In this document: positions 2,513-53,662 of the stretch, one piece after another
How the letters are laid out: each line of letters starts with the position of its first letter
Numbering within the stretch: position 1 is the stretch's first letter
Assembly (NCBI GenBank): GCA_018399975.1
Contig: JAGYNU010000001.1
Coordinates: forward strand, 1-53,662
Direction of reading: 5' to 3'
Length of the DNA stretch: 53,662 bases
Origin: Candidatus Omnitrophota bacterium
GTDB taxonomy: Bacteria; Omnitrophota; Gorgyraeia; M55B152
Program-made: the position numbers and the translations under genes
Notes under the pieces: model-generated
Seen by the model: only the letters and a program-made list of their open reading frames with translations
Told to the model about the DNA's origin: nothing
Database searches by the model: none

Positions 2513-2540
2513 TTTATCACCTCTTTTCTTCAATCATAAT

Positions 2541-3590
2541 CTACTTTTTTAATTTATCTTTTATTATTTCAGCACGTTTTTCATCTCTTTGTGCAGAATT
2601 AAGTTTCTTACCTGCAACTTTTTGAATATGTGCAGGCTGAATAATTATAAACAACTCATTTATGAACCTGCTATTTATTCCGTTAACTATATCTAAATCT
2701 GAGCCTAAACGCAAATTTGAAAGTAAATCTATTGTTTCGGAACTAGAAATAACTTTAGCATTACTTAAAACGCCATAAGCTCTCCAAATTTTATCTTCCA
2801 ACATTTTTCTTTGATTATTCAATTGATTTATTCTAGATTGTTTTTCTTGACTTATAATCTGTTTTATAACTCTTGATAAACTATCTATTATCTCATCTTC
2901 AGAATACCCTAATGTAATTTGGTTAGATACTTGAAAAAAATTTCCAGTAGCATCACTACCCTCACCATAAAAACCTCTAACAGCAAGAGATAATTTCGCA
3001 ATTGCTTGTAATACTTTATTGATTTGATTTGTCATTACCAAACTCGGTAAATGCAACATAACTGAAGCACGCATTCCAGTCCCTGTGTTTGTAGGACATG
3101 CTGTAAGATAACCCCAATTATTAGAAAAAGCATATTCTAATTTTCCGCTAAGGTCTTCATCTATAACTTTAACAATATCCCATGCACCCTGTAAGTTAAA
3201 TCCAGACTTTATAGCTTGCATTCTTAAATGGTCTTCTTCATTTATCATAATACTTAAAGTTTCATTATTTTTTATCACTACTGCTTTAGAACCACCCGGT
3301 TGAATATGTTCTTTACTAACTAAATGCCTCTCAAGAAGTAAATTCTTATCTACTTCATCTAATTCATCTATAATGCAAAACAAATGTTCCTTCATTAATT
3401 CATGGTTAATAACTACTGGTTTTATAATATCAAGGATTTGTTTTTTTTGTTTTTCATTTGCCCAATGCGAAAATGGAATCTTCTCTAAATTTCTAGCCAA
3501 TCTTATACGACTTGAAACAACTATATCAGAAGAATCACCTGTGCCTTTTAACCATTCACTAGTTTGCCCTAATAAATCACTTAATTCCAT
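2541..3590 (-). CDS. mcsB: protein arginine kinase McsB (ATP:guanido phosphotransferase family)
   Basis: Guanido-kinase signature CPTNTGTGMRASVMLHLP, about 350 aa, located between mcsA and clpC. Confidence 0.9.
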   Translation of the reverse strand: MELSDLLGQTSEWLKGTGDSSDIVVSSRIRLARNLEKIPFSHWANEKQKKQILDIIKPVVINHELMKEHLFCIIDELDEVDKNLLLERHLVSKEHIQPGGSKAVVIKNNETLSIMINEEDHLRMQAIKSGFNLQGAWDIVKVIDEDLSGKLEYAFSNNWGYLTACPTNTGTGMRASVMLHLPSLVMTNQINKVLQAIAKLSLAVRGFYGEGSDATGNFFQVSNQITLGYSEDEIIDSLSRVIKQIISQEKQSRINQLNNQRKMLEDKIWRAYGVLSNAKVISSSETIDLLSNLRLGSDLDIVNGINSRFINELFIIIQPAHIQKVAGKKLNSAQRDEKRAEIIKDKLKK

Positions 3591-3612
3591 AAACCATCCC
3601 TTTTTAAAAACA

Positions 3613-4140
3613 TTACTTTTCCTTGCTTTTATTTTTCTTTAACTCTTTTATTTTATCTCTAATTTCAGCAGCCTTTTCAAACTCTTCTTTATCAATAGCA
3701 ATTTGCATCGCTTCTTTTAATTTATTTATTTCAGATTCTTCAGATTTAACTTTTGCTTGAGTTTTTTTAACCTTACCAGTTTCTTTTACAGGCGCAGAAC
3801 CTACATGTTTGGTAGCCCTGTGTATTCTTTTAAGTAAAGGCTTTAAATTAGATTCAAAAGTAGTATAACATTTACTGCAACCCAACCGACCAATTTTTCT
3901 AAACTCCTCATACGTTAATCCACAATTAGGACATTTTAAAGTACTTTTCTTTGTTTCTTCGATAGGCGTCTCAAAATCTGATAAACCTGCAAGTAAATCT
4001 GCAAGACCAAAATGCTGTTCCATCTGAAAACTTTTCTTTTTTGCACATTCCTCACAAAGATGCAATTCAGTCATTTTATTATTGATAATCTCTGTAATAT
4101 GCACAGTAGCTTCCCTTTTATGACATATATCGCATAACAT
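3613..4140 (-). CDS. mcsA: McsA-like activator of arginine kinase (UvrB/UvrC-motif protein)
   Basis: N-terminal CxxC pairs (CDIC...CEEC, CPNC...CSKC) and a C-terminal UVR motif EEFEKAAEIRDKI. Lies directly upstream of mcsB. Confidence 0.8.
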   Translation of the reverse strand: MLCDICHKREATVHITEIINNKMTELHLCEECAKKKSFQMEQHFGLADLLAGLSDFETPIEETKKSTLKCPNCGLTYEEFRKIGRLGCSKCYTTFESNLKPLLKRIHRATKHVGSAPVKETGKVKKTQAKVKSEESEINKLKEAMQIAIDKEEFEKAAEIRDKIKELKKNKSKEK

Positions 4141-13436: not shown

Positions 13437-14535
13437 TCATTGTTCAGCTCGGTGTTTAAGCCATCCTTGGATAAATTTATCTATATCCCCATCCATAACT
13501 GCTTCTACATTTGCAGTTTCAACATTAGTTCTATGGTCTTTAACCATATTATACGGATGAAAAACATATGACCTTATTTGATTTCCCCAGGCTATTTCTT
13601 TTTTCTCTCCATGTTCTTTTTTTAATTTTTTTTCTCTTTTATCTTCCTCTAATTTAAATAATCTTGACTTTAAAACTTTTAAAGCCATATTACGGTTTTT
13701 ATGCTGCGACCTTTCATTTTGAGATTGAATGACTATCCCAGTAGGTAAATGTGTTATTCTTACAGCAGAGTCAGAAGTATTAACATGCTGACCTCCCGGG
13801 CCACTTGCTCTGAAAGTATCTATCCTCAAATCTTCATCTTTAATTTCAATTTCTATATTTTCTTCTATCTCAGGAATAACATCCACAGAAGCAAATGAAG
13901 TATGCCGCCTACTGTTAGAATCAAAAGGAGATATTCTAACTAATCGATGTATCCCTTTTTCAGCTTTAAGATAACCAAATACATAATCACCTTTTATTAT
14001 AAAAGTTACGCTCTTTATGCCTGCTTCTTCCCCCGGCTGCAAATCCAATGTTTGCATATTATAATTCTTGTCTTCAATCCATCTTGTATACATACGTAAA
14101 AGCATTTGAACCCAATCACATGCTTCAGTTCCACCTGCGCCCGAATGTATAGTCAGAATAGCATTATTTTTATCGTATTTACCACCCAGAAACTTATGAA
14201 ATTCAAACTTATTTACTTCACTAATAAACTTATCAATTTCTGATTGTAACTCTCTAACACTATCTTCATCATCTTCATCTATTAATTCAACTAATTCATA
14301 TAGAGATTTATAATCACTATACATTTTATCCCATTCCTGACAAATTATTTTAAGTTCCTTTAATTCTATAGTCAATTCGGTAGATTTAGTATCATTATTC
14401 CAAAAAGTAGGCTTTGACATTTGCTTTTCTATCTCACCTATTCGTTTTCTTTTTTTATCTAATTCAAAGATACCCCCTTAAATCATCTAATTTCGATTTA
14501 ACTAAATCTAACTTCTCAGCTAATTCCTCTAACAT
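13437..14535 (-). CDS. prfB: peptide chain release factor 2, expressed through a programmed +1 frameshift
   Basis: Frame 0 encodes MLEELAEKLDLVKSKLDDLRGYL then TGA (14535..14464). The +1 frame continues as ELDKKRKRIGEIEKQMSKPTFW... into the 327-aa ORF, which carries the SPF and GGQ motifs. Confidence 0.95.
14464..14479 (-). promoter_or_regulatory. prfB autoregulatory +1 frameshift site (AAGGGGG TAT CTT TGA)
   Basis: Read on the minus strand: an internal SD-like AGGGGG, a 3-nt spacer, the slippery CTT, and an in-frame TGA at 14466..14464. This is the canonical RF2 recoding arrangement. Confidence 0.9.
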
Positions 14536-14690
14536 CGTATCTCCTTATGATATCTTTATTTAAAATCAAAAACAACACTGTTGCCACAATAACATATATT
14601 GTCTTTTATGTCGAGTAAAAAAACTAAAAAAGGTAAGGTATAACTTATATTATAGGCAGGTAAAAAAAACTATAGATAAAACAAATATTA

Positions 14691-14933
14691 TTACCCTAAA
14701 AACTTATATATTGTAAACAAAATAAAAAAACCCAATAAAAAAGAAACTATTCCCAAAATTATTCTATGGGAAAACGCAGTATTATCCCATGTAACTAAAA
14801 GTTTATTAGCCCAATTATTCAATTTAATTAAGGTTTTTGGGAAAAACAAGGATAATAAACCAAAAATAATCAACAGGTACCCTGATAGAATTCCTAACTT
14901 CACTAAATCAAAAGTAATCTTTGTCACTTCCAT
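14691..14933 (-). CDS. small two-TM membrane protein, unknown function
   Basis: 80 aa with two hydrophobic helices. A good SD (GAGGAGG) lies 5 nt upstream of the ATG. Confidence 0.55.
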   Translation of the reverse strand: MEVTKITFDLVKLGILSGYLLIIFGLLSLFFPKTLIKLNNWANKLLVTWDNTAFSHRIILGIVSFLLGFFILFTIYKFLG

Positions 14934-15018
14934 AACTACCTCCTCTTTCTTCCTCTTTATAGAATGTCTTTAAATAATTATATTATGCCATAAATACATA
15001 ATATTTTTCAACAAAAAT

Positions 15019-15303
15019 TTAAAAAAATACATTCTCTTTTCGAAGAAGTTGCTTTTTCTTTTTTACACCCCTTGAATAACCCCCGATAGTCCCATCTGAC
15101 TTTATCACTCTATGGCAAGGAACAATGTCAAACCGAGAATTATTATTTAATGCTTGCCCTACAGCACGATAGGCCTTTGGTTTACCCATTTTTTCTGCTA
15201 CCCATTTATAACTTCTGGTTTCTCCTTTAGGTATAATTCGAACTATCTTATAAACTCCTTTCTGAAATGATGTTAAATTACTCCAAAAATTTTCATTTCT
15301 CAT
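15019..15303 (-). CDS. single-domain MGMT-family methylated-DNA--protein-cysteine methyltransferase
   Basis: 94 aa containing only the C-terminal DNA-binding and acceptor domain. The PCHRV active-site motif is intact (IVPCHRVIKSDGTIGGY). Confidence 0.8.
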   Translation of the reverse strand: MRNENFWSNLTSFQKGVYKIVRIIPKGETRSYKWVAEKMGKPKAYRAVGQALNNNSRFDIVPCHRVIKSDGTIGGYSRGVKKKKQLLRKENVFF

Positions 15304-15335
15304 ATTAAATTCCCTCTATCTTATATCCATTATTT

Positions 15336-21744: not shown

Positions 21745-23097
21745 ATGGAGTTAAAACCACAACTTAGTCCAAAATTAATACATAAATTAAAATTAACACC
21801 TCAGCTTAAACAAGCTATACATATATTACAGTTAAATCTTACTGAGCTTAGAGAATTGGCTGAACAAGAATTTGAAGAAAACCCTCTTTTAGAATTAGAA
21901 GAACCTCTCTCTAATGAAGATATCGATTTCGATGAAATATTAGACCAAGATGACATGGCTTACTATCTTCCCAAACAATCACAACCTAATACTAAAGATA
22001 TCCAAGAGAAACAAAATTATCTTGAAAGTCTAACTACAAAAAGTGAATCATTACAAGAAAATTTATTACATCAATTACATATAAATATATCTGATAAAGA
22101 AAAATATAAAATTGGAGAATATATCATAGGAAATATAAACGAAGAAGGATATTTGGAAGTTAACATCGAAGAAATCTGTCAAAGTAATGATTGTGATAAA
22201 AAAACAGCAAAAGAAGTACTAAATATAATACAGGATTTTTATCCTTCGGGAGTAGGTGCCCGTAATCTAAAAGAATCTTTAGAAATACAATTAAGGCATA
22301 AAGGTTATAAAAAAACAGATTTAATTTATAAAATAATAGATTCTCATATAGAAGATTTAGAAAAAGGAAAAATAAAAAAATTATCTAAAACATTCAAAGT
22401 AAGCGAAGAAAAAATAAAAGAAACACTTAAAGAAATAGCTTATCTTGAACCTAAATGTGGGAGAGAATTCTTAGATGAAAAAATACGTTATATATATCCT
22501 GATTTAATAATAACTGAAATAAAAGATAGATATGAAGTAAAACATAAAAACGACTTCCTTCCCACTTTGAAAGTAAGTAATTATTATAAAAAATTAACAA
22601 AAGATAAGAATACACCTGTAAGTACAAAAAAATACCTGAAAGAAAAATTAGCATCAGCACTTTGGTTAATAAAAGCTATTAACCAAAGACAAAATACAAT
22701 ATTAAAAGTCGCACAATGTATAGTAGACCATCAAGAAGATTTTTTTAAAAACGGCGAAGGATATTTAAAAGCGTTAACTTTAAAAGAAATTGCAAATAAG
22801 ATAGACATGAGCGAATCCACTGTAAGTAGAGCAACTACAGGAAAATATATATCTACCCCACATGGTATCTTTGAACTTAAAGACCTCTTTTCAAGAGAAA
22901 TACATGATACTTCAGTAGACAAAATAAAAAACCTCATAAAAGCATTTATAGAAAAAGAAAATATACATAGGCCTTTAACAGACACTCAAATATCCAAGTT
23001 ATTAAAACATAAAGGTATTGACATAGCACGCCGAACAGTGGCAAAATATAGAGATGATTTGAAAATATTACCTTCTCATTTAAGAAGCCAAAAATAA
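21745..23097 (+). CDS. rpoN: RNA polymerase sigma-54 factor
   Basis: Region I (LKLTPQLKQAIHILQL), an acidic region II, a C-terminal HTH and the RpoN box ARRTVAKYR. Confidence 0.92.
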   Translation: MELKPQLSPKLIHKLKLTPQLKQAIHILQLNLTELRELAEQEFEENPLLELEEPLSNEDIDFDEILDQDDMAYYLPKQSQPNTKDIQEKQNYLESLTTKSESLQENLLHQLHINISDKEKYKIGEYIIGNINEEGYLEVNIEEICQSNDCDKKTAKEVLNIIQDFYPSGVGARNLKESLEIQLRHKGYKKTDLIYKIIDSHIEDLEKGKIKKLSKTFKVSEEKIKETLKEIAYLEPKCGREFLDEKIRYIYPDLIITEIKDRYEVKHKNDFLPTLKVSNYYKKLTKDKNTPVSTKKYLKEKLASALWLIKAINQRQNTILKVAQCIVDHQEDFFKNGEGYLKALTLKEIANKIDMSESTVSRATTGKYISTPHGIFELKDLFSREIHDTSVDKIKNLIKAFIEKENIHRPLTDTQISKLLKHKGIDIARRTVAKYRDDLKILPSHLRSQK

Positions 23098-23129
23098 TTC
23101 TAAATATAAGGAATTTAAAGGAGTAATAA

Positions 23130-24092
23130 ATGATAGACTTTCCTGAAATAATTGGAAAAACAGAAGAAATCAAAAAAGTATTTAAATTAATGAACAAAGT
23201 CATCGAAACTGATAGTAATATATTGATATCGGGTGAAACTGGTACCGGCAAAGAGATGGTAGCAAGAGCAATACATAATTATGGAAATAGAAAAGATAAC
23301 CCTTTTGTCGCTGTAAACTGTTCTGCTCTTACCGAAACCTTACTGGAAACAGAATTATTTGGGCATATCCGCGGTTCTTTTACTGGGGCAACTGCAGAAA
23401 AAAAAGGCCTTTTTGAAATTGCAAATAAAGGAACATTTTTTATGGATGAAATTGGTGATATTAGTTTAAACGTCCAATCCAAACTGCTAAGAGTGATTCA
23501 AGAAGGAACAATCAGAAAAGTTGGAAGTACTGAAGATATGTCTATCGATGTTAGGCTTATAGCCGCCACAAATTTAGATTTAGAAAACGAAGTTAAAAAT
23601 AAATCTTTTCGTAAAGACCTTTACTATAGAATAACTGTTATACAAATACACATGCCTCCCTTAAGAAAAAGATTAGAAGATATACCTTTACTTGTTGACC
23701 ATTTCTTAGAGAAATACAAAGAAAAAGCTAATAAAGAAATAAATGGTTTTTCCAAAGAAGCTATGAAAGTATTACTTAACTATACATGGCCTGGAAACAT
23801 AAGAGAATTAGAACATGAAGTTGAAAGATGTATGGTCTTGACAGAAAACAAAACTATCCAGCCAGAAGATATTTCTGAAACAGTTCACACTGGAGGAAAA
23901 CTTCATCTTGGTGAAGTAGAAGATAAGTCATTAAAAGGTGTATTACAAGAATATGAAAAAAGAATAATAAAAGAAATACTATTTAATATGAAATGGAACA
24001 AAACTAAAACTGCAGATGTTCTTGGTATAACCCGTCAAGCATTAGACAACAAAATAAAAAAGTATAAAATAGATAGAAGAAGAAACGATTAA
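23130..24092 (+). CDS. sigma-54-dependent transcriptional activator lacking an N-terminal sensory domain
   Basis: Begins directly with the AAA+ domain (IIGKTEEIKKVF..., Walker A GETGTGKE, GAFTGA-type loop GSFTGA). A C-terminal Fis-type HTH (TKTADVLGITRQALDNKIKKY) follows. Confidence 0.9.
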   Translation: MIDFPEIIGKTEEIKKVFKLMNKVIETDSNILISGETGTGKEMVARAIHNYGNRKDNPFVAVNCSALTETLLETELFGHIRGSFTGATAEKKGLFEIANKGTFFMDEIGDISLNVQSKLLRVIQEGTIRKVGSTEDMSIDVRLIAATNLDLENEVKNKSFRKDLYYRITVIQIHMPPLRKRLEDIPLLVDHFLEKYKEKANKEINGFSKEAMKVLLNYTWPGNIRELEHEVERCMVLTENKTIQPEDISETVHTGGKLHLGEVEDKSLKGVLQEYEKRIIKEILFNMKWNKTKTADVLGITRQALDNKIKKYKIDRRRND

Positions 24093-45282: not shown

Positions 45283-47082
45283 TTAAACATATAAATTAAT
45301 TTTATCCTCTAAATGTTCTCTTGATACTAATCCCACTAATCTATCCTGCAATTCTCCACCTTTAAATATTGCTAACGTTGGTATACTCATAACTTGATAT
45401 TGCATAGCAAGGGAACGAGCTTCATCTAAATTAAGTTTACATACTTTCAATTTACCTTCATATTCATCAGCTATTTCTTCAACAACCGGAGTTATCATAT
45501 GGCAAGGCGCACAATTGTGGTGGATAACTCCATCAGCAACAAACATTTTAGTATCATTATTTAACATCAAAGAAATAAATTCGTAATTCCTTTTTTTATA
45601 TTTCTTAATTATTTTAACTTTTTCAAATGAAACTTTCTTAGTATCATCAGTGTATATTTTCAACCAATCTTTATAGGGCATAGCATCGCGGGGCGGAAAA
45701 GCTTCTCTTCCTTGTAGCCAGTTATTCACAATGCAGTAATTTAAATTCAATTTTTTGCTGATTTCACTAATTGAAAAATTATTTCTCATTCGAAGAACCT
45801 GTGATCTTTTTCTTCTCCTCTCGTTAATCTTTGCCAGCCTCTGTTCTAGATAAGCTTTTGCTAAAGCTGATATTATCTTTTTGGTATAGGCATATTTAAA
45901 GCCTATAGAAGCATAGGCATAAGCACTTTTAAAATCTGAACCTATCCAAATTTTTAAAAGTTTTGATTCTTTTCCGTCTTTTCTTTTATATCTATCTTCA
46001 ATTTTAATCTCTGTCTTTTTAATTTTTACTTTAAAATTATTCAAAAGTTGAGAAAGCTGTTTTGCGAAAAGTTGAGGTGATTTTTTTGCAAATGATGAAA
46101 AATGAAACTCAATTGGATTTATATTAGCAGTATTATAAGGAACTCTTTCTTTCCTTTTTATAGTTCTTATAACAACTCTAGGTCCATCACCTCCTAAAAA
46201 ACCCTGAAGAAATGCTTTTTGAACTTGTTCAGGTCCCTGTAATATCCATTTTGGAACTGTTAGTCCCTTAAAAAATTTCTTCCCTACAATTCCTCCCAAA
46301 GCTACTAATAAGATAAATAAAGAAGTTTTGGTTACTCTTACTCTATAACCAGATTGAGTAAACTTTCTACCATTGATTTCTCCCTCTTTTGACTTTTGTC
46401 TTCTAAAACTTGGGCAGAAACCAATATATTCTAAATCTCGCATTATCTCTTCTAAATCTTGCTTTCTTCCTACAAAAAATTCTACAAACCGTTCATTATT
46501 TTTAGTCATAGAAAGCGAACCATCTGTTAATAAAAATCCTATTAGATTAGCCAAAATATATGTTTTTTCTTGATTATACTTGAGAGTGAGTAATTTTTTC
46601 TCTCTTAATTCATTGATATATAATGACTTGTTTAGATTCAAATTTTTAGCCGTTTTTCTAACTTTTTTCTCAGTAAGAAACATTTTTTTACTGCCATTAG
46701 AATTAAGATAAAAATCTGCAAATAAATACGTAGAAAGTAAATCTCCAACCTGTAAATCTTCTACTTTTTTAAAACCATCCTTAGTCAGTATTAAATGTTC
46801 TGGAGTGCAAGTTAACTCTCTGTTACCCTCAGTTTTTACCTTAATCATTTGGTTAAGTATCACTCGATGTGTAGAGACAATATTGCTCTTTATCTCTTTA
46901 AAATTTTTATCAAAAGAAAGTATTTTTGAACCTCTCCTGGTTTCTTTAATATCTTTTACCTCTGGGTTGAAAATCAATTTACTTTTTGGTCCTAAACACC
47001 AAGGAGCCCAAAAATCTATCAAAACTGGCACATTAGACTCTAAAACTTCCTGTTGAAAATTTTGTTCTGTAATTTCCAGCAC
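45283..47082 (-). CDS. trxA: thioredoxin precursor interrupted by a 495-aa intein
   Basis: The exteins reconstitute a roughly 104-aa thioredoxin (...VLIDFWAPW | CAPCHMITPVVEEIADEYEGKLKVCKLNLDE...). Start taken at the second GTG, 8 nt after AGGAGG. Confidence 0.9.
   Translation of the reverse strand: MLEITEQNFQQEVLESNVPVLIDFWAPWCLGPKSKLIFNPEVKDIKETRRGSKILSFDKNFKEIKSNIVSTHRVILNQMIKVKTEGNRELTCTPEHLILTKDGFKKVEDLQVGDLLSTYLFADFYLNSNGSKKMFLTEKKVRKTAKNLNLNKSLYINELREKKLLTLKYNQEKTYILANLIGFLLTDGSLSMTKNNERFVEFFVGRKQDLEEIMRDLEYIGFCPSFRRQKSKEGEINGRKFTQSGYRVRVTKTSLFILLVALGGIVGKKFFKGLTVPKWILQGPEQVQKAFLQGFLGGDGPRVVIRTIKRKERVPYNTANINPIEFHFSSFAKKSPQLFAKQLSQLLNNFKVKIKKTEIKIEDRYKRKDGKESKLLKIWIGSDFKSAYAYASIGFKYAYTKKIISALAKAYLEQRLAKINERRRKRSQVLRMRNNFSISEISKKLNLNYCIVNNWLQGREAFPPRDAMPYKDWLKIYTDDTKKVSFEKVKIIKKYKKRNYEFISLMLNNDTKMFVADGVIHHNCAPCHMITPVVEEIADEYEGKLKVCKLNLDEARSLAMQYQVMSIPTLAIFKGGELQDRLVGLVSREHLEDKINLYV
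45514..46998 (-). other. intein (Hint splicing domain plus LAGLIDADG homing endonuclease) in the Trx active site
   Basis: Cys1 (CLGPKSKLIF), block B TCTPEHLILTKDG, LAGLIDADG motifs LIGFLLTDGSL and LQGFLGGDGP, terminal VIHHN, then Cys+1. Boundaries verified codon by codon: TGG|TGT at 46999/46998 and AAT|TGT at 45514/45513. Confidence 0.85.
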
Positions 47083-47268
47083 TATTAACACCTCCTAACA
47101 ATTGCAAAACTTGATTCCAAAAGATATTTATATTTATATGACCAATCTTTAGTAATTATATATTGTTTGAATTTCTTTCGCAAGAAACTCTTCTATAAAA
47201 AGGGAAGGATATATTTAAGATTTTAAAAAAAGCAAATTTATAATAATTTTAAAACCAATTCTCTATAT

Positions 47269-47943
47269 TTATCTCTCTCCAAATATGGCTGTTCCTATCC
47301 TAACCATATTACTACCTAATTCAATAGCAACTTTATAAGAATTAGTCATACCCATGGAAAGATATTTCATTTCTACATTAGACAAATTTAAATTTTTAAT
47401 TTTATTAAAAATATCTTTAGTTTTATCGAAATACGGTATAAAATCTTCCGAGACTCCAAATCTCGGCCCCATAGTCATAATACCTTTTACCGATATATTA
47501 CTAAAACCACTTACTTTCTTTATAAAATCTAAAGCATTTTCTGGCAAAATCCCTGTTTTTTGTTTTTCTTTTCCACTATTTATCTCAACAAGAACAGGCA
47601 TAACTTTATTAACCTCTTTGCATCGTTTATTTAATTCTTCTGCCAATCTTAAAGAATCCAATGATTCTATCATATCAAAAACTTTAATGGCCTCCTTAAC
47701 TTTATTTCTCTGCAGGTGTCCTATCATATGCCACTCAACCTTATCAGCATCACCACCTAAACCATTATATACACTCAAAGCTTCCTGAACATAATTTTCT
47801 CCTATATATTTAGCTCCTGCAAATATAACTTCTCTAATTTCTTCAGCAGTTCTTTTCTTTGCCGCTACTACAATATCTATCTTATCAGGCAAAGACTTTC
47901 TTAAATCAATATATCTTTTTGAAATATTCATATTCTTTACCAT
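47269..47943 (-). CDS. yggS: YggS-family pyridoxal phosphate homeostasis protein
   Basis: 224 aa alanine-racemase-N fold with AAKKRT (PLP Lys), HMIGHLQRNKV and LSMGMT motifs. Confidence 0.88.
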   Translation of the reverse strand: MVKNMNISKRYIDLRKSLPDKIDIVVAAKKRTAEEIREVIFAGAKYIGENYVQEALSVYNGLGGDADKVEWHMIGHLQRNKVKEAIKVFDMIESLDSLRLAEELNKRCKEVNKVMPVLVEINSGKEKQKTGILPENALDFIKKVSGFSNISVKGIMTMGPRFGVSEDFIPYFDKTKDIFNKIKNLNLSNVEMKYLSMGMTNSYKVAIELGSNMVRIGTAIFGER

Positions 47944-48695
47944 TATATATTTAATTCTGCACCTACTCTTATAGGTATAAATTTATCTTTGTACTCTGCT
48001 TTAAACATTTTCTCAGCTTCCTTGCCACTACAATGGGTAGCTCCAACTTTTTCGATACCTAACTGTCTAAATTTATCTATAATTAAATCGATTTTATTTT
48101 GATCTGTTCTCATAAGATGAAACCCTCCTAAAACCAAACTTAATTTATAATCTTTAAATTTAGCCTTTATTTTGTTAAGTATGTTAATAATACCAGAGTG
48201 TGCACAACCGGTTAAAACTATTAAATTCCGTTCTTGTTTTTTTATTATTAGACTTTGCTCAGCTATATATTCTCCGTTATATTCACCTTCAATTTCCCCA
48301 GAACTCAATATATAATCCATCCCATTTATTTCAGGAAAATCCTTTTCGCTATTAATATCTTTAAATAAAGGAACTTCAATTAATTCTGTTTTATATTTCT
48401 TAACTTTATTTTTAAATTTTTTACTAAAACCGGGGCACCCATAAACTTGTAAACCTCTTCTATGCTTTAGCAAATTCCATAAACCTCCGGTATGATCCCA
48501 ATGGTCATGAGAAATAACAACTGACTCTATACTATTTAAATCAATATTCATATAACGAATATTATACAATAGCCATCTACCTTTTTCTCCTGTATCAAAC
48601 AAAATTTTATTATCTATTAATACTGAGAAACCCCACCCAATATGCAAATCATTATTTACAGCTTTATAATCAAATAAAATCTTTAAATTACTCAC
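47943..48695 (-). CDS. MBL-fold metallo-hydrolase
   Basis: HxHxDH motif as ISHDHWDHTGG, with later GCAHSG and a C-terminal His/Cys ligand region. Confidence 0.7.
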   Translation of the reverse strand: MSNLKILFDYKAVNNDLHIGWGFSVLIDNKILFDTGEKGRWLLYNIRYMNIDLNSIESVVISHDHWDHTGGLWNLLKHRRGLQVYGCPGFSKKFKNKVKKYKTELIEVPLFKDINSEKDFPEINGMDYILSSGEIEGEYNGEYIAEQSLIIKKQERNLIVLTGCAHSGIINILNKIKAKFKDYKLSLVLGGFHLMRTDQNKIDLIIDKFRQLGIEKVGATHCSGKEAEKMFKAEYKDKFIPIRVGAELNI

Positions 48696-48763: not shown

Positions 48764-49243
48764 TTACATCTTCATACTTTTTTTATATTTCCATTTCTTT
48801 AAAAAATTCATATAATCAACAATCAATTTCCCATCTAAATGATCTATTTCATGCAGAACAACTCTAGCTAAAAGTCCTTTTAAATCAAGTTCTACCTCAT
48901 CTCCTTTTTCATTTAAACCAACAGCTGTAATACTATATGACCTTTTAACATCAACACTTGTGTCTGGAATACTTAAACAACCTTCTATCATTTTATCTTT
49001 ACCCTTTTTGTTAATAACTTTAGGATTTGCAAGTTTAATTACTTTATTATCAACTTCAGCTATTATCATTCTTTTTGACAAACCAATTTGAGGAGCAGCT
49101 AAACCTATACCTTTAAAATACCGCATAGTGTACAACATTCTATCAAATAACTCACTTTCTTCCTGTGTTATTCCATTGACAGGTTCACAAATCTTTCTTA
49201 AAACATCATCATTAGGATATTTCTTTATTTCCATTATTTCCAT
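48764..49243 (-). CDS. def: peptide deformylase
   Basis: Three PDF motifs: GIGLAAPQIG, EGCLS, HEIDHLDG. Confidence 0.92.
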   Translation of the reverse strand: MEIMEIKKYPNDDVLRKICEPVNGITQEESELFDRMLYTMRYFKGIGLAAPQIGLSKRMIIAEVDNKVIKLANPKVINKKGKDKMIEGCLSIPDTSVDVKRSYSITAVGLNEKGDEVELDLKGLLARVVLHEIDHLDGKLIVDYMNFLKKWKYKKSMKM

Positions 49244-49253
49244 ATATAACTCC

Positions 49254-50111
49254 CTAATAACTATTTTCTTTTAAAACTATATTGCCAACTTCACAATCGA
49301 GTTTATCCGCCATTACAAAACATTTTACTTTAAGCATAAAAAATATAGGAGCTTTTTCTCCAATTAAAGTTTCTATATTACCTTGTCCTTTACTAATAAT
49401 AATATCAGCATCATTAAATTCTTTGAGAAACTCACTTGAACAAATCTCTAAAGGAGTCCCAGGAACATCCGAACCACTTTCTATAATTCTACATATTTTA
49501 TCTAACCCACATAGTCGAGCATCTTCCATTAATATATCATTTATAGCAGGTTTACTTCTAACTGCAAATACTATATTTTTATTATTCACATTCAACATAT
49601 ATTCAATAAGAATTTTATCAAACACTATTTCTCCTGCATTGTCTCCAATATAAAGAATCTTTTTTGCTTTTTCTAATTTTCTTTTAAAACTATCATAATC
49701 AAAAATACCCAATTTTTTATGAACTATATTCTTTATTTCTTGTTCAATATCGAATTTCCCTGGAGTTCCAAAATCTATAACATTTCCAGCGATAGCAAAT
49801 TTTGTTGCCAAAAGCAAAGGGTCATCTGAGTTTCCAACTTCTTCTTTTACTTTACTATATAATCCCATTGCTTTTTTATTAGAATCTCTTTTTACTTTAT
49901 AAAAAGGGTCCCCATCTTTAGTAATCTGCTCTATTACATTATAAACTTTTTTAGCAATAAAAGGAGGAGATAATTCCATGCTAATTTCTTTCATAATATC
50001 AGCTACTTTATCTAAAACCTCTCTTTGCTGAATAATATTAACCCCAGCTAAACGGGCAGTTCTAAGTGCTTGATTATAAAAACAAGGTATACAATCTAAA
50101 TAAGTTTGCAT
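49254..50111 (-). CDS. DUF89 / ARMT1-like damage-control phosphatase family protein
   Basis: N-terminal DCIPCFYNQALRTARL, central GDNAGEIVFD and C-terminal KGQGN, as remembered for DUF89. Confidence 0.7.
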   Translation of the reverse strand: MQTYLDCIPCFYNQALRTARLAGVNIIQQREVLDKVADIMKEISMELSPPFIAKKVYNVIEQITKDGDPFYKVKRDSNKKAMGLYSKVKEEVGNSDDPLLLATKFAIAGNVIDFGTPGKFDIEQEIKNIVHKKLGIFDYDSFKRKLEKAKKILYIGDNAGEIVFDKILIEYMLNVNNKNIVFAVRSKPAINDILMEDARLCGLDKICRIIESGSDVPGTPLEICSSEFLKEFNDADIIISKGQGNIETLIGEKAPIFFMLKVKCFVMADKLDCEVGNIVLKENSY

Positions 50112-50114
50112 AAA

Positions 50115-50777
50115 TTAATTAATTTTTCCTTCCACAACAGCTTTTTTTGAAATATTATCTTTCGTAAATAAATTAAATAAACTTTTAGGCACACACATAG
50201 CTAAACTATCTCTATCTATACCACCATATATTCGAGATTCATCACAACCAAAAGATAAAGTTATTTCATTTGTAACATATGACTTAACTGCTAAATTACC
50301 ACAAATTGACATTATGCTGGAAATAACAACTTTTAATTCCTGCCCTGTTTCATCATGATACATTCGCACGATATCCATAGCTGTTTTAGGATTTAAATAA
50401 GCAATAGCTATATCTGGATCTTTATCTGTATTTAAACCTATATATTTAGGAGCATTATTTAATTCTTCTAAATTGTAGATGATATCTTTTGCAGTATCAT
50501 AATCAATATTCCTCTTATCAAGACAAATTGTTATAATATCATCTCTTGTTTTTTCTGACCATTTGAATATAAATTTTGCAGGTTCACAATTTAAATTATC
50601 CTTTTTGAAAATTATAGGATGAATTATAGCTTTATTTATAGCTTCACAAAATCTAAATTGTGATTTATCATAATAAAGATCTAATATTTCTTTATCCGGG
50701 AGGAATTGATAAAACTTAACCCCAACCCAATGTATCCCATATTGTTTTCTCATCTTTTCTATAATCTGCCCACCCAT
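50115..50777 (-). CDS. DUF169 family protein (uncharacterised)
   Basis: 220 aa with an N-terminal ...VGVKF... pattern and overall resemblance to COG2043/DUF169. The recognition is weak. Confidence 0.5.
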   Translation of the reverse strand: MGGQIIEKMRKQYGIHWVGVKFYQFLPDKEILDLYYDKSQFRFCEAINKAIIHPIIFKKDNLNCEPAKFIFKWSEKTRDDIITICLDKRNIDYDTAKDIIYNLEELNNAPKYIGLNTDKDPDIAIAYLNPKTAMDIVRMYHDETGQELKVVISSIMSICGNLAVKSYVTNEITLSFGCDESRIYGGIDRDSLAMCVPKSLFNLFTKDNISKKAVVEGKIN

Positions 50778-50826: not shown

Positions 50827-51456
50827 TCAACTATATTGCGCTTTTATAACTACAAAACTCCCTTCACCATAATTAGGTTTAGAAAACTCACATTCATCAA
50901 GTTTTCTCGGATCGTTAAATAACGTTTGTCTAAAAGAAAAATTTCTAAAACCAACTTTTTCAAGTAAATCTATCACTTCTTGTGGGGAAAAAAAATTAGC
51001 ATGAGCATAAAATGCACTGTCACTCGATATATACTGTTTACCCAAAACACTATTCTTATCAATTATACCTAAAATAATATTACCTGATTTTCTTAAAACA
51101 CGTTTAGTTTCAGATAATACTACTAAAGGATTTCTAATAAAACAAAGGGTTGTTATCATTAATACTGTATCAAAAACATTATCCTTAAATGGTAGCCTTT
51201 CTCCATTTGCTTTAAAAACATTCAAACATTTAGCATGAGCAAGTTTTAACATTTCAAAAGAAACATCTACTCCAACAGCTATATTTAAATCAGATGCAAA
51301 GCGGCCTGTTCCTGTCCCAATTTCTAAACTTTTCGATTTAACACTTAAAAAATATTTTAATGCTTCAAGTTCGGAAAGATAAATAAATTCATTTTCCTCA
51401 TACCATTTATCATATTTCAAAGCATATTTATCAAATATTTCTGGTATAGTAGACAT
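50827..51456 (-). CDS. class I SAM-dependent methyltransferase
   Basis: Motif I LEIGTGTGRF, then a post-I acidic residue (GVDVS) and a motif-II-like FDTVLM. Start at MSTIPEIF. Confidence 0.8.
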   Translation of the reverse strand: MSTIPEIFDKYALKYDKWYEENEFIYLSELEALKYFLSVKSKSLEIGTGTGRFASDLNIAVGVDVSFEMLKLAHAKCLNVFKANGERLPFKDNVFDTVLMITTLCFIRNPLVVLSETKRVLRKSGNIILGIIDKNSVLGKQYISSDSAFYAHANFFSPQEVIDLLEKVGFRNFSFRQTLFNDPRKLDECEFSKPNYGEGSFVVIKAQYS

Positions 51457-51461
51457 TTTTA

Positions 51462-51773
51462 CTAAAACTCTTCCCACCATCCGTTATAAAAACGATTTAA
51501 GTGCTCACGATACATCTTTTCAATCTTTGTATCTTGCACATCTTTTTTGTTAAAAGAATATTTATAATTCCTTATGTATTCCATTATAATTTGATAGGCA
51601 TCATTTATTTGTTTGAACTTTTCCTCATAGCCACCTATCTTTTTATCTCTACAACTATCAGGATGATACTTTTTGGAAAGTTTTCTAAATTGCGATTTAA
51701 CTTCATCTAAAGTTACTTCCTTATCAAGTTGCAAAATTTTTCTTGCGTTATTAATCTTTTCAAAATCTGCCAT
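51462..51773 (-). CDS. stand-alone J-domain protein
   Basis: J-domain with the HPD tripeptide (LSKKYHPD...INDAYQII). A short Trp-rich tail (YNGWWEEF) follows, with no DnaJ zinc-finger or C-terminal domains. Confidence 0.7.
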   Translation of the reverse strand: MADFEKINNARKILQLDKEVTLDEVKSQFRKLSKKYHPDSCRDKKIGGYEEKFKQINDAYQIIMEYIRNYKYSFNKKDVQDTKIEKMYREHLNRFYNGWWEEF

Positions 51774-51793
51774 AAACACCTTTCTGTATATAA

Positions 51794-52018
51794 TTATGCT
51801 CTAACCATTTTAGAGCCACATTTGGGACATTTTCTTTCATAACAAGGTTGTCCTGCACCATGCGCAACTTTTGTCCCACAACTTGGACAAACACAGTCTC
51901 CACTAGGGCCTGCTCCAGGCCTATTGCCCCCTAAACGTCCTCTACCTCTACCTCCTCCAAAACCTCTACCACTTCCAGGACCTCGTCCTGCTGGGCCAGT
52001 TCCATCTCCAAATGGCAT
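51794..52018 (-). CDS. Gly/Arg-rich small protein with DUF5320-like N-terminus and C-terminal zinc ribbon
   Basis: MPFGDGTGPAGRGPGSGRG... followed by CVCPSCG...CPKCG. An AAGGGGGA SD lies upstream. Confidence 0.6.
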   Translation of the reverse strand: MPFGDGTGPAGRGPGSGRGFGGGRGRGRLGGNRPGAGPSGDCVCPSCGTKVAHGAGQPCYERKCPKCGSKMVRA

Positions 52019-52081
52019 AATATTCCCCCTTTTTATAAATAAATTACGTTAAATTAAAAAATGCGGGTTATAACAAAACAC

Positions 52082-52648
52082 CTATAAACTTAATTTTTCT
52101 TTTAATTCAGCAAGTTTTCTTCTAATTTCTTTTGCCTGTTGTTCTAAATCTTTAGCTTCTTGTTCTAATCTATCAAATTCTTCTTCTCGACTAAGTCCTT
52201 CTTGTTGAACACTATCACTATCAGAAAATGGTGTATTATTGCCCCCTTTCATTTTTCTACCAAATCCACCTCTACCAATACTTCCTGTCCCAAACTTAGA
52301 ATCTACAGTAGAAGATTGAACAAATTCTAAATCATCTGTCTTATATTTCTCTATTATTTTCTGCACACTTCCACTAGATAACCCTGTAATTATTTTAATT
52401 CCTGCAGCCTGTAGAGTTTGAAAAGCATTTGGCCCAATATTTCCACTTAAAACTACATCAACTTGTTTATTAGCAACTAATTGTCCCGACTGAACCCCAG
52501 CTCCTCCACCTGCTATAATATTTGAATTTCTAATCGCTTCAAAACTTTCAGTTTCAGAATCATAGATTATAAAATACTGGCATCTTCCAAACCGTGGGTC
52601 AACTTGTGAATCTAAATTGTCTCCTTGAGAAGTTACACAAATCTTCAT
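52082..52648 (-). CDS. NifB/NifX-family (dinitrogenase FeMo-cofactor-binding fold) protein with Gly-rich linker and coiled-coil tail
   Basis: MKICVTSQGDNLDSQVDPRFGRCQYFIIYD... is typical of NifX-like/DUF-type proteins. The C-terminal GRGGFGR segment and the heptad-rich REEEFDRLEQEAKDLEQQAKEIRRKL tail are extra. GAAGGAGG SD upstream. Confidence 0.75.
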   Translation of the reverse strand: MKICVTSQGDNLDSQVDPRFGRCQYFIIYDSETESFEAIRNSNIIAGGGAGVQSGQLVANKQVDVVLSGNIGPNAFQTLQAAGIKIITGLSSGSVQKIIEKYKTDDLEFVQSSTVDSKFGTGSIGRGGFGRKMKGGNNTPFSDSDSVQQEGLSREEEFDRLEQEAKDLEQQAKEIRRKLAELKEKLSL

Positions 52649-52736
52649 AAAACCTCCTTCTGTAAACACACAGTATATTAACTAATTAATAATACCTAAC
52701 CTATTTTATTTATCATCAACTATAAATTAATAATCG

Positions 52737-53123
52737 TTAATGCCCTTGGTCATGTTCTGTTTTTTCTCTCGAAACTCCATATCCTTTTCCACTTCCAGGG
52801 TTACAAAGACTCTGACCTTCTTTTAAAGTACCATTAATCAATTTATCAATTATTTTATCTACATCTCCGGTTACACCAATAATACTCTTTATCTTTTTCT
52901 CTTCAAACAATGCATAAGCTTTACGCCCCATTCCTCCAGCAATAATACATTCAACATCATACTGACGTAAAAATTCCGGCAAATACCCTGTTTTATGTCC
53001 CGGATTATTTATAATTTTTTTGGATTTAACATCGCCTTTTTTTATATCAATGATTGTAAAAGCAGGACATCTTCCAAAATGAGCTGATACCTTACCGTCA
53101 TCAGTTGAAATAGCGATTTTCAT
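52737..53123 (-). CDS. NifB/NifX-family (FeMo-cofactor-binding fold) protein
   Basis: MKIAISTDDGKVSAHFGRCPAFTIIDI... and IIAGGMGRKA motifs. Confidence 0.8.
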   Translation of the reverse strand: MKIAISTDDGKVSAHFGRCPAFTIIDIKKGDVKSKKIINNPGHKTGYLPEFLRQYDVECIIAGGMGRKAYALFEEKKIKSIIGVTGDVDKIIDKLINGTLKEGQSLCNPGSGKGYGVSREKTEHDQGH

Positions 53124-53211
53124 AAATACTCCTTGGTTAATTTAAAAGACAACACCCTCCACCTATTTTTTAATAACAAACTTAATAAAATGACAAAATC
53201 TAAATTATATA

Positions 53212-53607
53212 TTATTTATCTTTATTTGTCGATTCTTTTTCTAATGTACCGATACGTTTTTGAATATTTTCTAATTCTTTTTTTAAAAATTTGCTTTGCT
53301 CCTTTAACATACCAACTTCTTGTTGAGGAGTAACCTCTTGCTCATAAAACTGGGAACCATAATAAGGCATTTTTTTCCACGAAGGTAATCCTTGAGTAAA
53401 CCTTGACCAACCTGGAGCCCCTGTAGCATAATACCAGTTTCTGTAACCACGGCCACCATAGCCACCCCATGAACCATGTCTAAATCCGAAACCTCTTCCC
53501 GGAGCCAAATTTATATATCCAGGGCCTGAATTTCCAGCACAATATCCTGCACCTCTACCTGTCTTTGGGCCTAAACCTTCTGGGCCTGTTCCATTTCCAC
53601 CTGGCAT
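53212..53607 (-). CDS. DUF5320 family protein
   Basis: MPGGNGTGPEGLGPKTGRGAGYCAG start, an aromatic/Gly-rich middle and a C-terminal coiled coil. AGGAGGGGG SD upstream; the track ORF starts 9 codons earlier. Confidence 0.65.
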   Translation of the reverse strand: MPGGNGTGPEGLGPKTGRGAGYCAGNSGPGYINLAPGRGFGFRHGSWGGYGGRGYRNWYYATGAPGWSRFTQGLPSWKKMPYYGSQFYEQEVTPQQEVGMLKEQSKFLKKELENIQKRIGTLEKESTNKDK

Positions 53608-53662
53608 AATAATCCCCCTCCTAAATGAGCACATGTTTTACGCGACCAACGGAAGCGTAAAT

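Follow-up and report, generated by a model that had tools for sequence, protein, structure and literature searches.

We report here that one end of a 53,662-nucleotide (nt) stretch of DNA from a Candidatus Omnitrophota bacterium (contig JAGYNU010000001.1; the whole stretch is referred to as the window) carries a locus best explained as a pair of co-travelling units of Omnitrophota-like anaerobes. Unit 1 is a four-gene block encoding a DUF5320 protein, two NifX-fold proteins (NifX1, and NifX2-cc with a C-terminal coiled coil) and a Gly/Arg-rich zinc-ribbon protein (GR-Zn), and we read it as a trimmed module of the type represented by the orange protein (ORP) complex and IssA. The second unit pairs a J-domain protein (J) with a class I S-adenosylmethionine (SAM) methyltransferase of the TM1293 type. 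We assign the full explanation a probability of about 60%. Anaerobes are known to have such a system for handling iron-sulfur (Fe-S) species, although it is poorly understood, and the block is a trimmed variant of it. The observations behind this reading are the domain identities, the synteny among relatives, a set of domain fusions, the pairing of J with the methyltransferase, and a gene neighbourhood common to Bacteria and Archaea.

An initial annotation, made from the letters of the window, had described five co-directional minus-strand genes with strong Shine-Dalgarno sites at this position. All five open reading frames (ORFs) are indeed present, a GGAGG-like ribosome-binding site lies ahead of each start, and the domain calls are correct by Pfam, with the zinc ribbon reaching sub-threshold matches only. 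The start codons of three genes were reset using the Shine-Dalgarno sequence and the N-termini of the respective families. The intergenic gaps from DUF5320 through NifX1, NifX2-cc and GR-Zn to J are 88, 88, 63 and 20 nt, and 5 nt separate J from the methyltransferase gene, which is followed directly by the DUF169 and DUF89 genes, as annotated. A Pfam scan of the window ORFs of at least 100 amino acids (aa) found no nitrogenase genes, in agreement with the annotation, and no isc (IscU/HscA) or Hsp70 genes either.

The annotation also regarded the neighbourhood as recurrent and proposed a gene-order check across relatives, and this was borne out. The order DUF5320, NifX1, NifX2, GR-Zn is found in the related loci L001, L089 and L090, and in L005 with the two NifX genes swapped. 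In L001, the closest relative, where the J protein is 69% identical to that of the window, the genes run Fur, DUF5320, NifX1, NifX2-cc, GR-Zn, Zn_ribbon_8, J, MinD-ferredoxin ATPase, TrmO_N, MinD-ferredoxin ATPase and DUF169, then HypA, DUF89 and peptide deformylase (pdf), and onward to Trx, Thiamine_BP and the methyltransferase. The window methyltransferase thus fills the slot held in L001 by the two MinD-ferredoxin ATPase genes and TrmO. In L089 and L090 the block follows a Fur-family gene and precedes two MinD-ferredoxin ATPases, a second methyltransferase type, a radical SAM gene, OsmC (not constant), J and the TM1293-type methyltransferase, while in L005 it is followed by two MinD-ferredoxin ATPases, Mrp, DUF89, a metallo-beta-lactamase (MBL)-fold gene, Pyr_redox (a pyridine-nucleotide disulfide oxidoreductase) and J. 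Two genes for MinD-type ATPases with 4Fe-4S ferredoxin inserts therefore lie downstream of the block in all four relatives, and Mrp is present in L005, L015 and L017. A separate observation from these loci is a small four-Cys protein (CKWFDVCP...YCxGDxSxCVRK...HPDNMLPDG; L089 7589-7780 and L091 8761-8964) with no Pfam or NCBIfam match, encoded in Omnitrophota-like loci between the second methyltransferase type and the radical SAM or J gene; it is not encoded in the window.

Could the arrangement reflect mere adjacency in a compact, nearly co-directional genome, with no functional module at all? Over 53 kb almost every gene is on the minus strand and the gaps are short, and housekeeping genes (pdf, yggS, queuosine genes) are interleaved. 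However, because the order DUF5320, NifX, NifX, GR-Zn recurs in four independent relatives, the block is not a chance adjacency. The block and the J-methyltransferase pair are each kept across loci whose surroundings are rearranged, locus identities are 40-70%, so that these are not near-identical strains, and domain fusions connect the components. We consider mere adjacency barely credible.

A Fur-family gene stands upstream of the block in three of the four relatives (L001, L089 and L090), and among NCBIfam models these proteins score best against Fur (E 1e-37 to 1e-40), with PerR behind. At its end, the window aligns over 55 nt with the leader upstream of the L001 DUF5320 gene, which follows the Fur-family gene of that locus; the alignment with L001:1800-1933 includes CGTAAAACATGTGCTCATT in the window versus CATAAATCATGGTCTCATT in L001. 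Since this L001 leader is non-coding, the next upstream gene of our locus lies off the window. Judging from the relatives and the leader alignment, a Fur-family gene probably lies just beyond the window edge. Neither Fur nor TrmO genes occur within the 53.6-kb window, and DUF134, the second methyltransferase type, the 258-aa radical SAM gene, OsmC, HypA and a RACo-like gene were likewise not found in it. Scans of the window for sigma70 promoters and terminators gave background levels only. The sigma54 -24/-12 pattern showed no enrichment (16 matches versus 11.4 expected), with none upstream of the block, where the promoter region is cut by the window edge.

The identity of Unit 1 is most readily seen in its NifX-fold proteins. 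NifX1 has the NifX/'Di-Nase' fold with the conserved candidate ligand motifs HFGRC, NPGH and SLCxPGxGKGYG; His15, Cys19, His43 and Cys107 are kept in six of seven aligned orthologues, and the divergent L014 copy keeps only the two His. In a single-sequence AlphaFold2 model of NifX1 the predicted local distance difference test (pLDDT) score was 46, too low to place these four residues in space. In NCBIfam, NifX1 finds its best match in MrpORP, over the C-terminal domain (NF041136 positions 265-365, E 4e-27), and in the PDB the best match is TM1290 (1T3V, 1O13). In NifX2-cc, residues 1-112 form a NifX domain of the orange-protein type, and a Gly/Arg linker, GRGGFGRKMKGG, joins this domain to a coiled coil of four to five heptads. 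The NifX domain finds the Desulfovibrio gigas ORP (2WFB) as its best PDB match (E 9.4e-19, residues 2-103), and the coiled coil is related to the C-terminal half of DUF5320 (26.2 bits, cut-off 27). Among aligned orthologues only the window and L001 have this C-terminal extension. The fusion of NifX2 with DUF5320 sequence in the window argues for direct cooperation. The annotation had called the neighbourhood uncharacterised, which was overstated, for the Desulfovibrio ORP complex (PMC6345978) and the Pyrococcus IssA (PMC5524996) are studied relatives. Because NifX2 matches ORP and NifX1 matches the C-terminal domain of MrpORP, the set is better described as trimmed ORP/IssA-type than as an uncharacterised kind, and we hold the ORP-type identity of Unit 1 to be highly probable.

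What Unit 1 carries is a less certain matter. Fe-S is the probable cargo in our view, ahead of a thiomolybdate- or thiotungstate-type heterometal sulfide, which would make the block a device for Mo/W handling under sulfidic conditions. Such a role would suit the resemblance of NifX2 to ORP, a binder of S2MoS2CuS2MoS2 (PMC6345978), a ModABC/TOBE-type transporter near the Thermococcus cluster, and the radical SAM protein of the relatives, which best matches a tungsten-cofactor maturase and MoaA, although far below the cut-offs. Set against these points, the upstream regulator in the relatives fits Fur better than other family models, the MrpORP Di-Nase domain, the closest match of NifX1, binds Fe-S (PMC6345978), and no genes for Mo/W transport or molybdopterin synthesis were found among the window ORFs scanned. 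Mo/W handling is accordingly very unlikely, and Fe-S remains the favoured cargo.

The DUF5320 protein is built of three parts, namely an N-terminal motif, a cationic segment rich in Gly, aromatic residues and Arg, and a leucine zipper of four heptads. The motif, MPxGxGTGPxGLGPxTGRxAGYCAG, is invariant in an alignment of five orthologues. Residues 1-90 comprise 28% Gly, 19% Trp+Tyr+Phe and nine Arg+Lys (10% cationic), with an isoelectric point (pI) of 9.9 and a single, invariant Cys within GYCAG. Whereas this ORF scores 78.6 bits against the Pfam DUF5320 model (gathering cut-off 27 bits), the C-terminal half of NifX2-cc (26.2) and the N-terminus of GR-Zn (17.8) stay below the cut-off. DUF5320 and GR-Zn nevertheless have the N-terminal motif MPxGxGTGPxGxGPxxGRG in common, and a 69-nt direct repeat with 77% identity links the 5' ends of their genes, so that the motif is paralogous at the DNA level. 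In GR-Zn the motif is followed by an RG-rich segment (45% Gly, pI 12) and a Cys/His knuckle, C-x-C-P-x-C-G-x5-H-x4-P-C-x4-C-P-x-C-G, whose six Cys and one His exceed a four-Cys zinc ribbon by two Cys and one His. An exhaustive phmmer search returned 1322 family representatives at E<=1e-3 and 155 at E<=1e-10 (counted as 50%-identity representative proteins), most of them stand-alone proteins of 65-80 aa. Others are fusions: NifX with GR-Zn (P0293, P0373), DUF134 with GR-Zn (P0287, P0383, P0346, P0356), and, in P0264, a PF04060 FeS domain of the RnfB type followed by a helix and GR-Zn. Since such fusions exist, the GR-Zn module is directly tied to NifX domains and to DUF134, the latter having been named by the annotation as a companion of these genes.

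RGG boxes and zinc ribbons are classical nucleic-acid binders, and the same proteins could therefore be read as nucleic-acid-binding or regulatory factors, with an RGG-type box joined to a zinc ribbon or coiled coil and the NifX domains serving as cluster-sensing inputs, so that the block as a whole would be a regulatory device and not a carrier or store. At least four 50%-identity clusters in which GR-Zn is fused to the helix-turn-helix domain of DUF134 agree with this, as does a report in which RG-rich motifs of Methanosarcina DUF134 and DUF5320 proteins were flagged as G-quadruplex-binding-like (PMC7565180). However, GR-Zn is also fused directly to NifX and to the RnfB-type FeS domain, its additional two Cys and one His go beyond the needs of a four-Cys zinc ribbon, the block adjoins ATPases with Fe-S inserts in the relatives, and Pfam detects no DNA-binding domain in the window copies. 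We regard a regulatory device as improbable and retain the ORP/IssA-type reading for the block.

The J protein is of class C, with the HPD motif, a basic helix II and a conserved 32-aa tail, Y-x-F/Y-S-F ... H-L-x-R-F-Y-D/N-G-W-W. Searching with the single sequence yielded two close homologues only; a profile built from 13 members retrieved more than 120 proteins of ~105 aa (E 1e-42 to 1e-46), and the members with names are mostly from Candidatus Omnitrophota, with one from Auribacterota. In the AlphaFold2 model residues 1-71 are mostly confident, save for the loop after HPD, and the tail (residues 72-103) has pLDDT values of 39-56. A tail that is conserved but modelled with low confidence fits a segment that would fold on a partner. 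Most family members have three Cys, two of them in the loop after HPD (HPDxC-x7-C) and one in helix IV (YC), and the window copy keeps only the first; the three conserved Cys hint at a metal or redox site. J-domain proteins from eight other loci (L006-L008, L029, L030, L042, L073 and L075) proved unrelated and were discarded.

The initial annotation likened this protein to HscB. Under such a model J would be a co-chaperone for Hsp70-driven release of clusters or cofactors from NifX-like carriers to their clients, and some features would allow it: the HPD motif and basic helix II are intact, and J is part of the NifX block or its direct neighbour in four loci (the window, L001, L014 and L015), while in three more (L005, L089 and L090) no more than 6 kb separate the two. 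The analogy itself is not supported. In place of the HscB C-terminal domain there is the 32-aa low-confidence tail; the hscB model TIGR00714 scores 21.1 bits, versus a cut-off of 46.75, and covers the J region only; Foldseek retrieves generic J domains with no HscB in the top 50 matches; and no isc genes (iscS, iscU, hscA, fdx) are found in the window or in the fully annotated related loci. The tightest partner of J is moreover the methyltransferase, J occurs in places where no NifX gene is near, and the ORP/IssA-type clusters of Thermococcales have no J gene. Thermococcales archaea are not known to have Hsp70. An HscB-like role is hence improbable, to about the same degree as the regulatory one.

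Across 19 independent J loci that we inspected, the TM1293-type methyltransferase gene comes directly after J in 15, with reading frames that usually overlap or nearly abut. A NifX gene is visible in seven of the 19 (seven of the 15 with enough flank), four contigs being too short and eight loci being informative negatives. Thus the annotated association of J with NifX-like carriers stands for these seven loci, but the steady partner is the methyltransferase. In L091, L093 and L094 the J-methyltransferase pair is present although the 9-10 kb to either side hold no NifX gene. Neighbours of the pair include thioredoxin, rubrerythrin, desulfoferrodoxin, OsmC, DUF89 and MBL genes.

In two loci a RACo/AcsV-like protein, composed of a 2Fe-2S ferredoxin domain and an ASKHA-fold ATPase, is encoded directly after J or the J-methyltransferase pair (L005 7985-9610; L009 1610-2284). 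The ASKHA fold is common to Hsp70 ATPase domains. Because the RACo/AcsV-like neighbour has this fold as well, a J partner other than DnaK is conceivable.

The methyltransferase matches TM1293 (PDB 1VLM) along its whole length with E 3.1e-53, query residues 6-206 aligning with residues 15-216 of the chain. An ArsM-like enzyme was ruled out, only one Cys being widely kept among the orthologues, and so was a PRMT-like enzyme, the THW motif not being seen in the sequence. Orthologues in Thermococcales (45-47% identity) adjoin DUF134, MinD-ferredoxin ATPase and NifX genes, and have no J gene beside them. In one Thermococcus species, two MinD-ferredoxin ATPase genes and a radical SAM gene are found no more than 4 kb from the methyltransferase gene. 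The Palaeococcus ferrophilus methyltransferase gene overlaps the upstream DUF134 gene, which agrees with the annotated association with DUF134, and abuts two MinD-ferredoxin ATPases, NifX and TrmO_N. About 8 kb away in the same locus is a gene for a 202-aa PF02579 protein starting MRIAVPTNGGG, which, by comparison with the IssA N-terminus known from a published primer, MKIAIPTNGGG (PMC5524996 supplement), is a probable IssA orthologue. Since the Thermococcales orthologues sit among the same genes, the methyltransferase is an old member of this neighbourhood, and by gene position J occupies the upstream slot held by DUF134 in Archaea. The Palaeococcus DUF134 protein (L095 7673-8014) begins MPGGMGPGWRRGRRRKRRR, a Gly/Arg-rich sequence reminiscent of the DUF5320 N-terminal motif.

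Taken together, we propose that Unit 1, under iron control, binds and retains metal-sulfur species of an inorganic kind, with Fe-S the likeliest. NifX1 would ligate a cluster through its conserved His and Cys, and NifX2 would hold one non-covalently, like the orange protein. The cationic Gly/Arg/aromatic segments of DUF5320 and GR-Zn could neutralise or wrap the anionic cargo, and the DUF5320 zipper may pair with the zipper fused to NifX2. Expression of the block is probably iron-responsive through a Fur-family regulator that would be encoded just past the window edge. The J and methyltransferase genes, as a closely spaced pair, are likely co-translated; the disordered J tail probably binds the methyltransferase, and the J domain would recruit DnaK to the enzyme or its client. 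A complex of J and methyltransferase is, like the Fe-S cargo, something we consider rather probable. That the pair acts on the NifX or DUF5320 proteins is doubtful. A bolder version, in which DUF5320 and GR-Zn are free-standing IssA tails that dock on NifX scaffolds by way of the zippers and their common N-terminal motif and template a bacterial thioferrate-like Fe-S store, with J/DnaK and the methyltransferase controlling its assembly or ATP-driven mobilisation in Omnitrophota, is quite unlikely; if true, bacteria would have an inorganic Fe-S depot operated by chaperones, something not so far described in them.

Several observations weigh against our reading. MinD/Mrp-like ATPases, which the annotation expected as companions, do stand beside the block in the relatives, but the window has no copy: tblastn over the 53.6 kb with the L001 MinD-ferredoxin ATPases and with the L005 Mrp found no match, and Pfam found no MinD-ferredoxin ATPase among the ORFs scanned. 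The studied ORP complex is defined by these very genes. The cluster present in the isolated orange protein was Mo-Cu-S and not Fe-S (PMC6345978), and the likeness of the DUF5320 segment to the IssA tail is compositional only. As to iron control, no operator was recognised in the leader alignment between the window and L001, and Fur control in this genome is inferred from the relatives only. Lastly, the J-methyltransferase pair occurs without NifX, beside rubrerythrin, desulfoferrodoxin or thioredoxin genes, which leaves room for a client with no relation to Unit 1.

The features of the locus are collected in Table 1.

Table 1. Genes and other features at the DUF5320/NifX/J locus (window coordinates)
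Feature	Coordinates	Strand	Length	Match or remark
DUF5320 leader, non-coding	53608-53662	minus		homologous to the intergenic region 5' of the L001 DUF5320 gene
DUF5320 gene	53212-53607	minus	131 aa	Pfam PF17253, 78.6 bits, E 8.6e-22
NifX1 gene	52737-53123	minus	128 aa	PF02579, E 1.7e-20
NifX2-cc gene	52082-52648	minus	188 aa	PF02579, E 9.6e-26
69-nt stretch at the 5' end of the GR-Zn gene, ribosome-binding site included	51962-52030	minus	69 nt	repeated at 53551-53619
GR-Zn (Gly/Arg-rich zinc ribbon) gene	51794-52018	minus	74 aa	zinc-ribbon matches all sub-threshold
J-domain gene	51462-51773	minus	103 aa	PF00226, E 1.6e-15; HPD at residues 37-39
TM1293-type class I SAM methyltransferase gene	50827-51456	minus		PDB 1VLM match
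DUF169 gene	50115-50777	minus		Pfam
DUF89/ARMT1 phosphatase gene	49254-50111	minus		Pfam
Peptide deformylase (pdf) gene	48764-49243	minus		Pfam
MBL-fold hydrolase gene	47943-48695	minus		Pfam

Beyond the methyltransferase, the window gene order runs DUF169, DUF89, pdf, MBL-fold hydrolase and then yggS; the first four of these are syntenic with L001 at 54-62% identity, and DUF89 and MBL genes are also close to J or ORP-type genes in L005, L012, L013, L015, L017 and L094. The other ORFs identified in the Pfam scan are housekeeping genes typical of a diderm bacterium, and no RNA families were found in the window with Rfam.

Some of the remaining genes merit mention in their own right. A thioredoxin gene (45283-47091, minus strand) is split by a 495-aa intein with a LAGLIDADG endonuclease, placed exactly within the active site. 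The junctions read ...FWAPW / CLGPK...VIHHN / CAPC..., which makes the first Cys of the WCAPC redox motif the +1 nucleophile for splicing. Spliced in silico, the thioredoxin has 107 aa and is 69% identical to the intein-less thioredoxin of L001; the same intein occurs in L003. At the other end of the window (29-4140, minus strand) are genes for a ClpC-type AAA+ unfoldase, a McsB-like ATP:guanido phosphotransferase of the protein arginine kinase type, and a McsA-like protein with UVR motif. Firmicutes are the best-known bearers of such an arrangement; the present genome, with LptE, BamD and Lnt, is of the diderm type. The only clear plus-strand genes in this otherwise minus-strand 53-kb stretch (21745-24092) encode RpoN (sigma54) and, after it, a 320-aa sigma54 activator without an N-terminal sensor domain. 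Finally, a release-factor ORF with PCRF and RF-1 domains (13437-14420, minus strand) begins at profile position 12, and no ORF of at least 100 aa is present in the next ~900 nt (14421-15335); a programmed +1 frameshift, as in prfB, combined with a stretch left unannotated could account for both.

For the storage and traffic of Fe-S outside the ISC and SUF systems in strict anaerobes, no entry points other than the ORP complex and IssA have been studied. A full-text literature search found no paper on the J-methyltransferase pair or on the modular DUF5320/GR-Zn fusions. The present analysis does not overturn current views; it supplies a sharper parts list and a set of hypotheses for a known puzzle, in an uncultured phylum, and should be of moderate interest to specialists in Fe-S biogenesis. 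The new, testable links are the fusions of Gly/Arg modules to NifX and DUF134, and the lineage-specific J-methyltransferase pair.

Among the known systems that can be compared with the locus, the HscB/HscA pair is alike in that a J protein with HPD is encoded near genes for Fe-S-binding proteins. It differs in that the window J protein has no HscB C-terminal client-binding domain and no iscU, hscA or fdx context, and has a SAM methyltransferase as its steady partner. NifX, NafY and the NifB C-terminal domain belong to the same fold family (PF02579) as the window NifX proteins, which score only 17.5 against the nitrogenase nifX model and 14.8 against nifB (cut-offs 112 and 343.65); there are no nif genes in the window. 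Of the Thermotoga maritima structural-genomics proteins compared, TM1290 (1O13, 1T3V), TM1293 (1VLM) and TM1816 (1RDU), the first is closest to NifX1 and the second to the methyltransferase. The locus tags TM1290 and TM1293 are three apart, and this numbering suggests that both belong to the same Thermotoga neighbourhood.

The ORP complex of Desulfovibrio vulgaris comprises Orp3 and Orp4 (MinD-type ATPases with ferredoxin motifs), Orp5 and Orp8 (NifX-fold) and Orp9, which is MrpORP; a role in cell division has been proposed for it, and MrpORP transfers Fe-S to the complex and binds Fe-S through its Di-Nase domain (PMC6345978; PMC8359166 for composition, role and transfer). The window likewise encodes two single-domain PF02579 types, one ORP/Orp8-like and the other bearing Cys and His like the Orp9 Di-Nase domain. 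NifX2 is of the orange-protein type (Orp8/ORP) by its 2WFB match, and NifX1 corresponds to the second PF02579 Cys/His module (Orp5 or the Orp9 Di-Nase domain) by its NF041136 match, with the motif SAHFGRCP versus CXHFGHCE. Both systems are restricted to anaerobes. The relatives of the window hold two MinD-ferredoxin ATPases and Mrp in the same cluster, whereas the window is without them, and regulation involves sigma54/OrpR in Desulfovibrio versus a Fur-family regulator in the relatives. The window further adds DUF5320, GR-Zn and the NifX-coiled-coil fusion, and the J-methyltransferase pair is not described in the ORP complex.

IssA of Pyrococcus furiosus is a NifX-fold protein with a cationic tail rich in Gly, aromatic residues and Arg, proposed to wrap anionic thioferrate; the tail has 15/70 Gly, 14/70 aromatic and 7/70 cationic residues and one Cys (PMC5524996). 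Both IssA and the window set combine a PF02579/IPR003731 domain with a cationic, Gly/aromatic-rich low-complexity segment containing a single Cys, but in the window the tail-like composition is supplied in trans, by DUF5320 residues 1-90 and GR-Zn residues 1-40, with coiled-coil and zinc-ribbon additions. Single window polypeptides fall outside the limits set for IssA (pI >= 9, <5 Cys, >= 20% Gly in the last 40 residues; PMC5524996 supplement). NifX1 (pI 9.1, 3 Cys, 17.5% Gly in the last 40 residues) lies within the looser limits for IssX only (pI >= 8, <10 Cys, >= 10% Gly; same supplement), and NifX2-cc is acidic (pI 5.1), with 2% Gly in its 42-residue C-terminal coiled-coil segment. In Palaeococcus the probable IssA orthologue lies ~8 kb from the cluster of methyltransferase, DUF134, MinD-ferredoxin ATPase and NifX genes. 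The ORP and IssA systems therefore share a neighbourhood across the two domains of life, made up of NifX paralogues, MinD-ferredoxin ATPases, a TM1293-type methyltransferase, TrmO_N, radical SAM, DUF134 or Fur, DUF5320 and GR-Zn.

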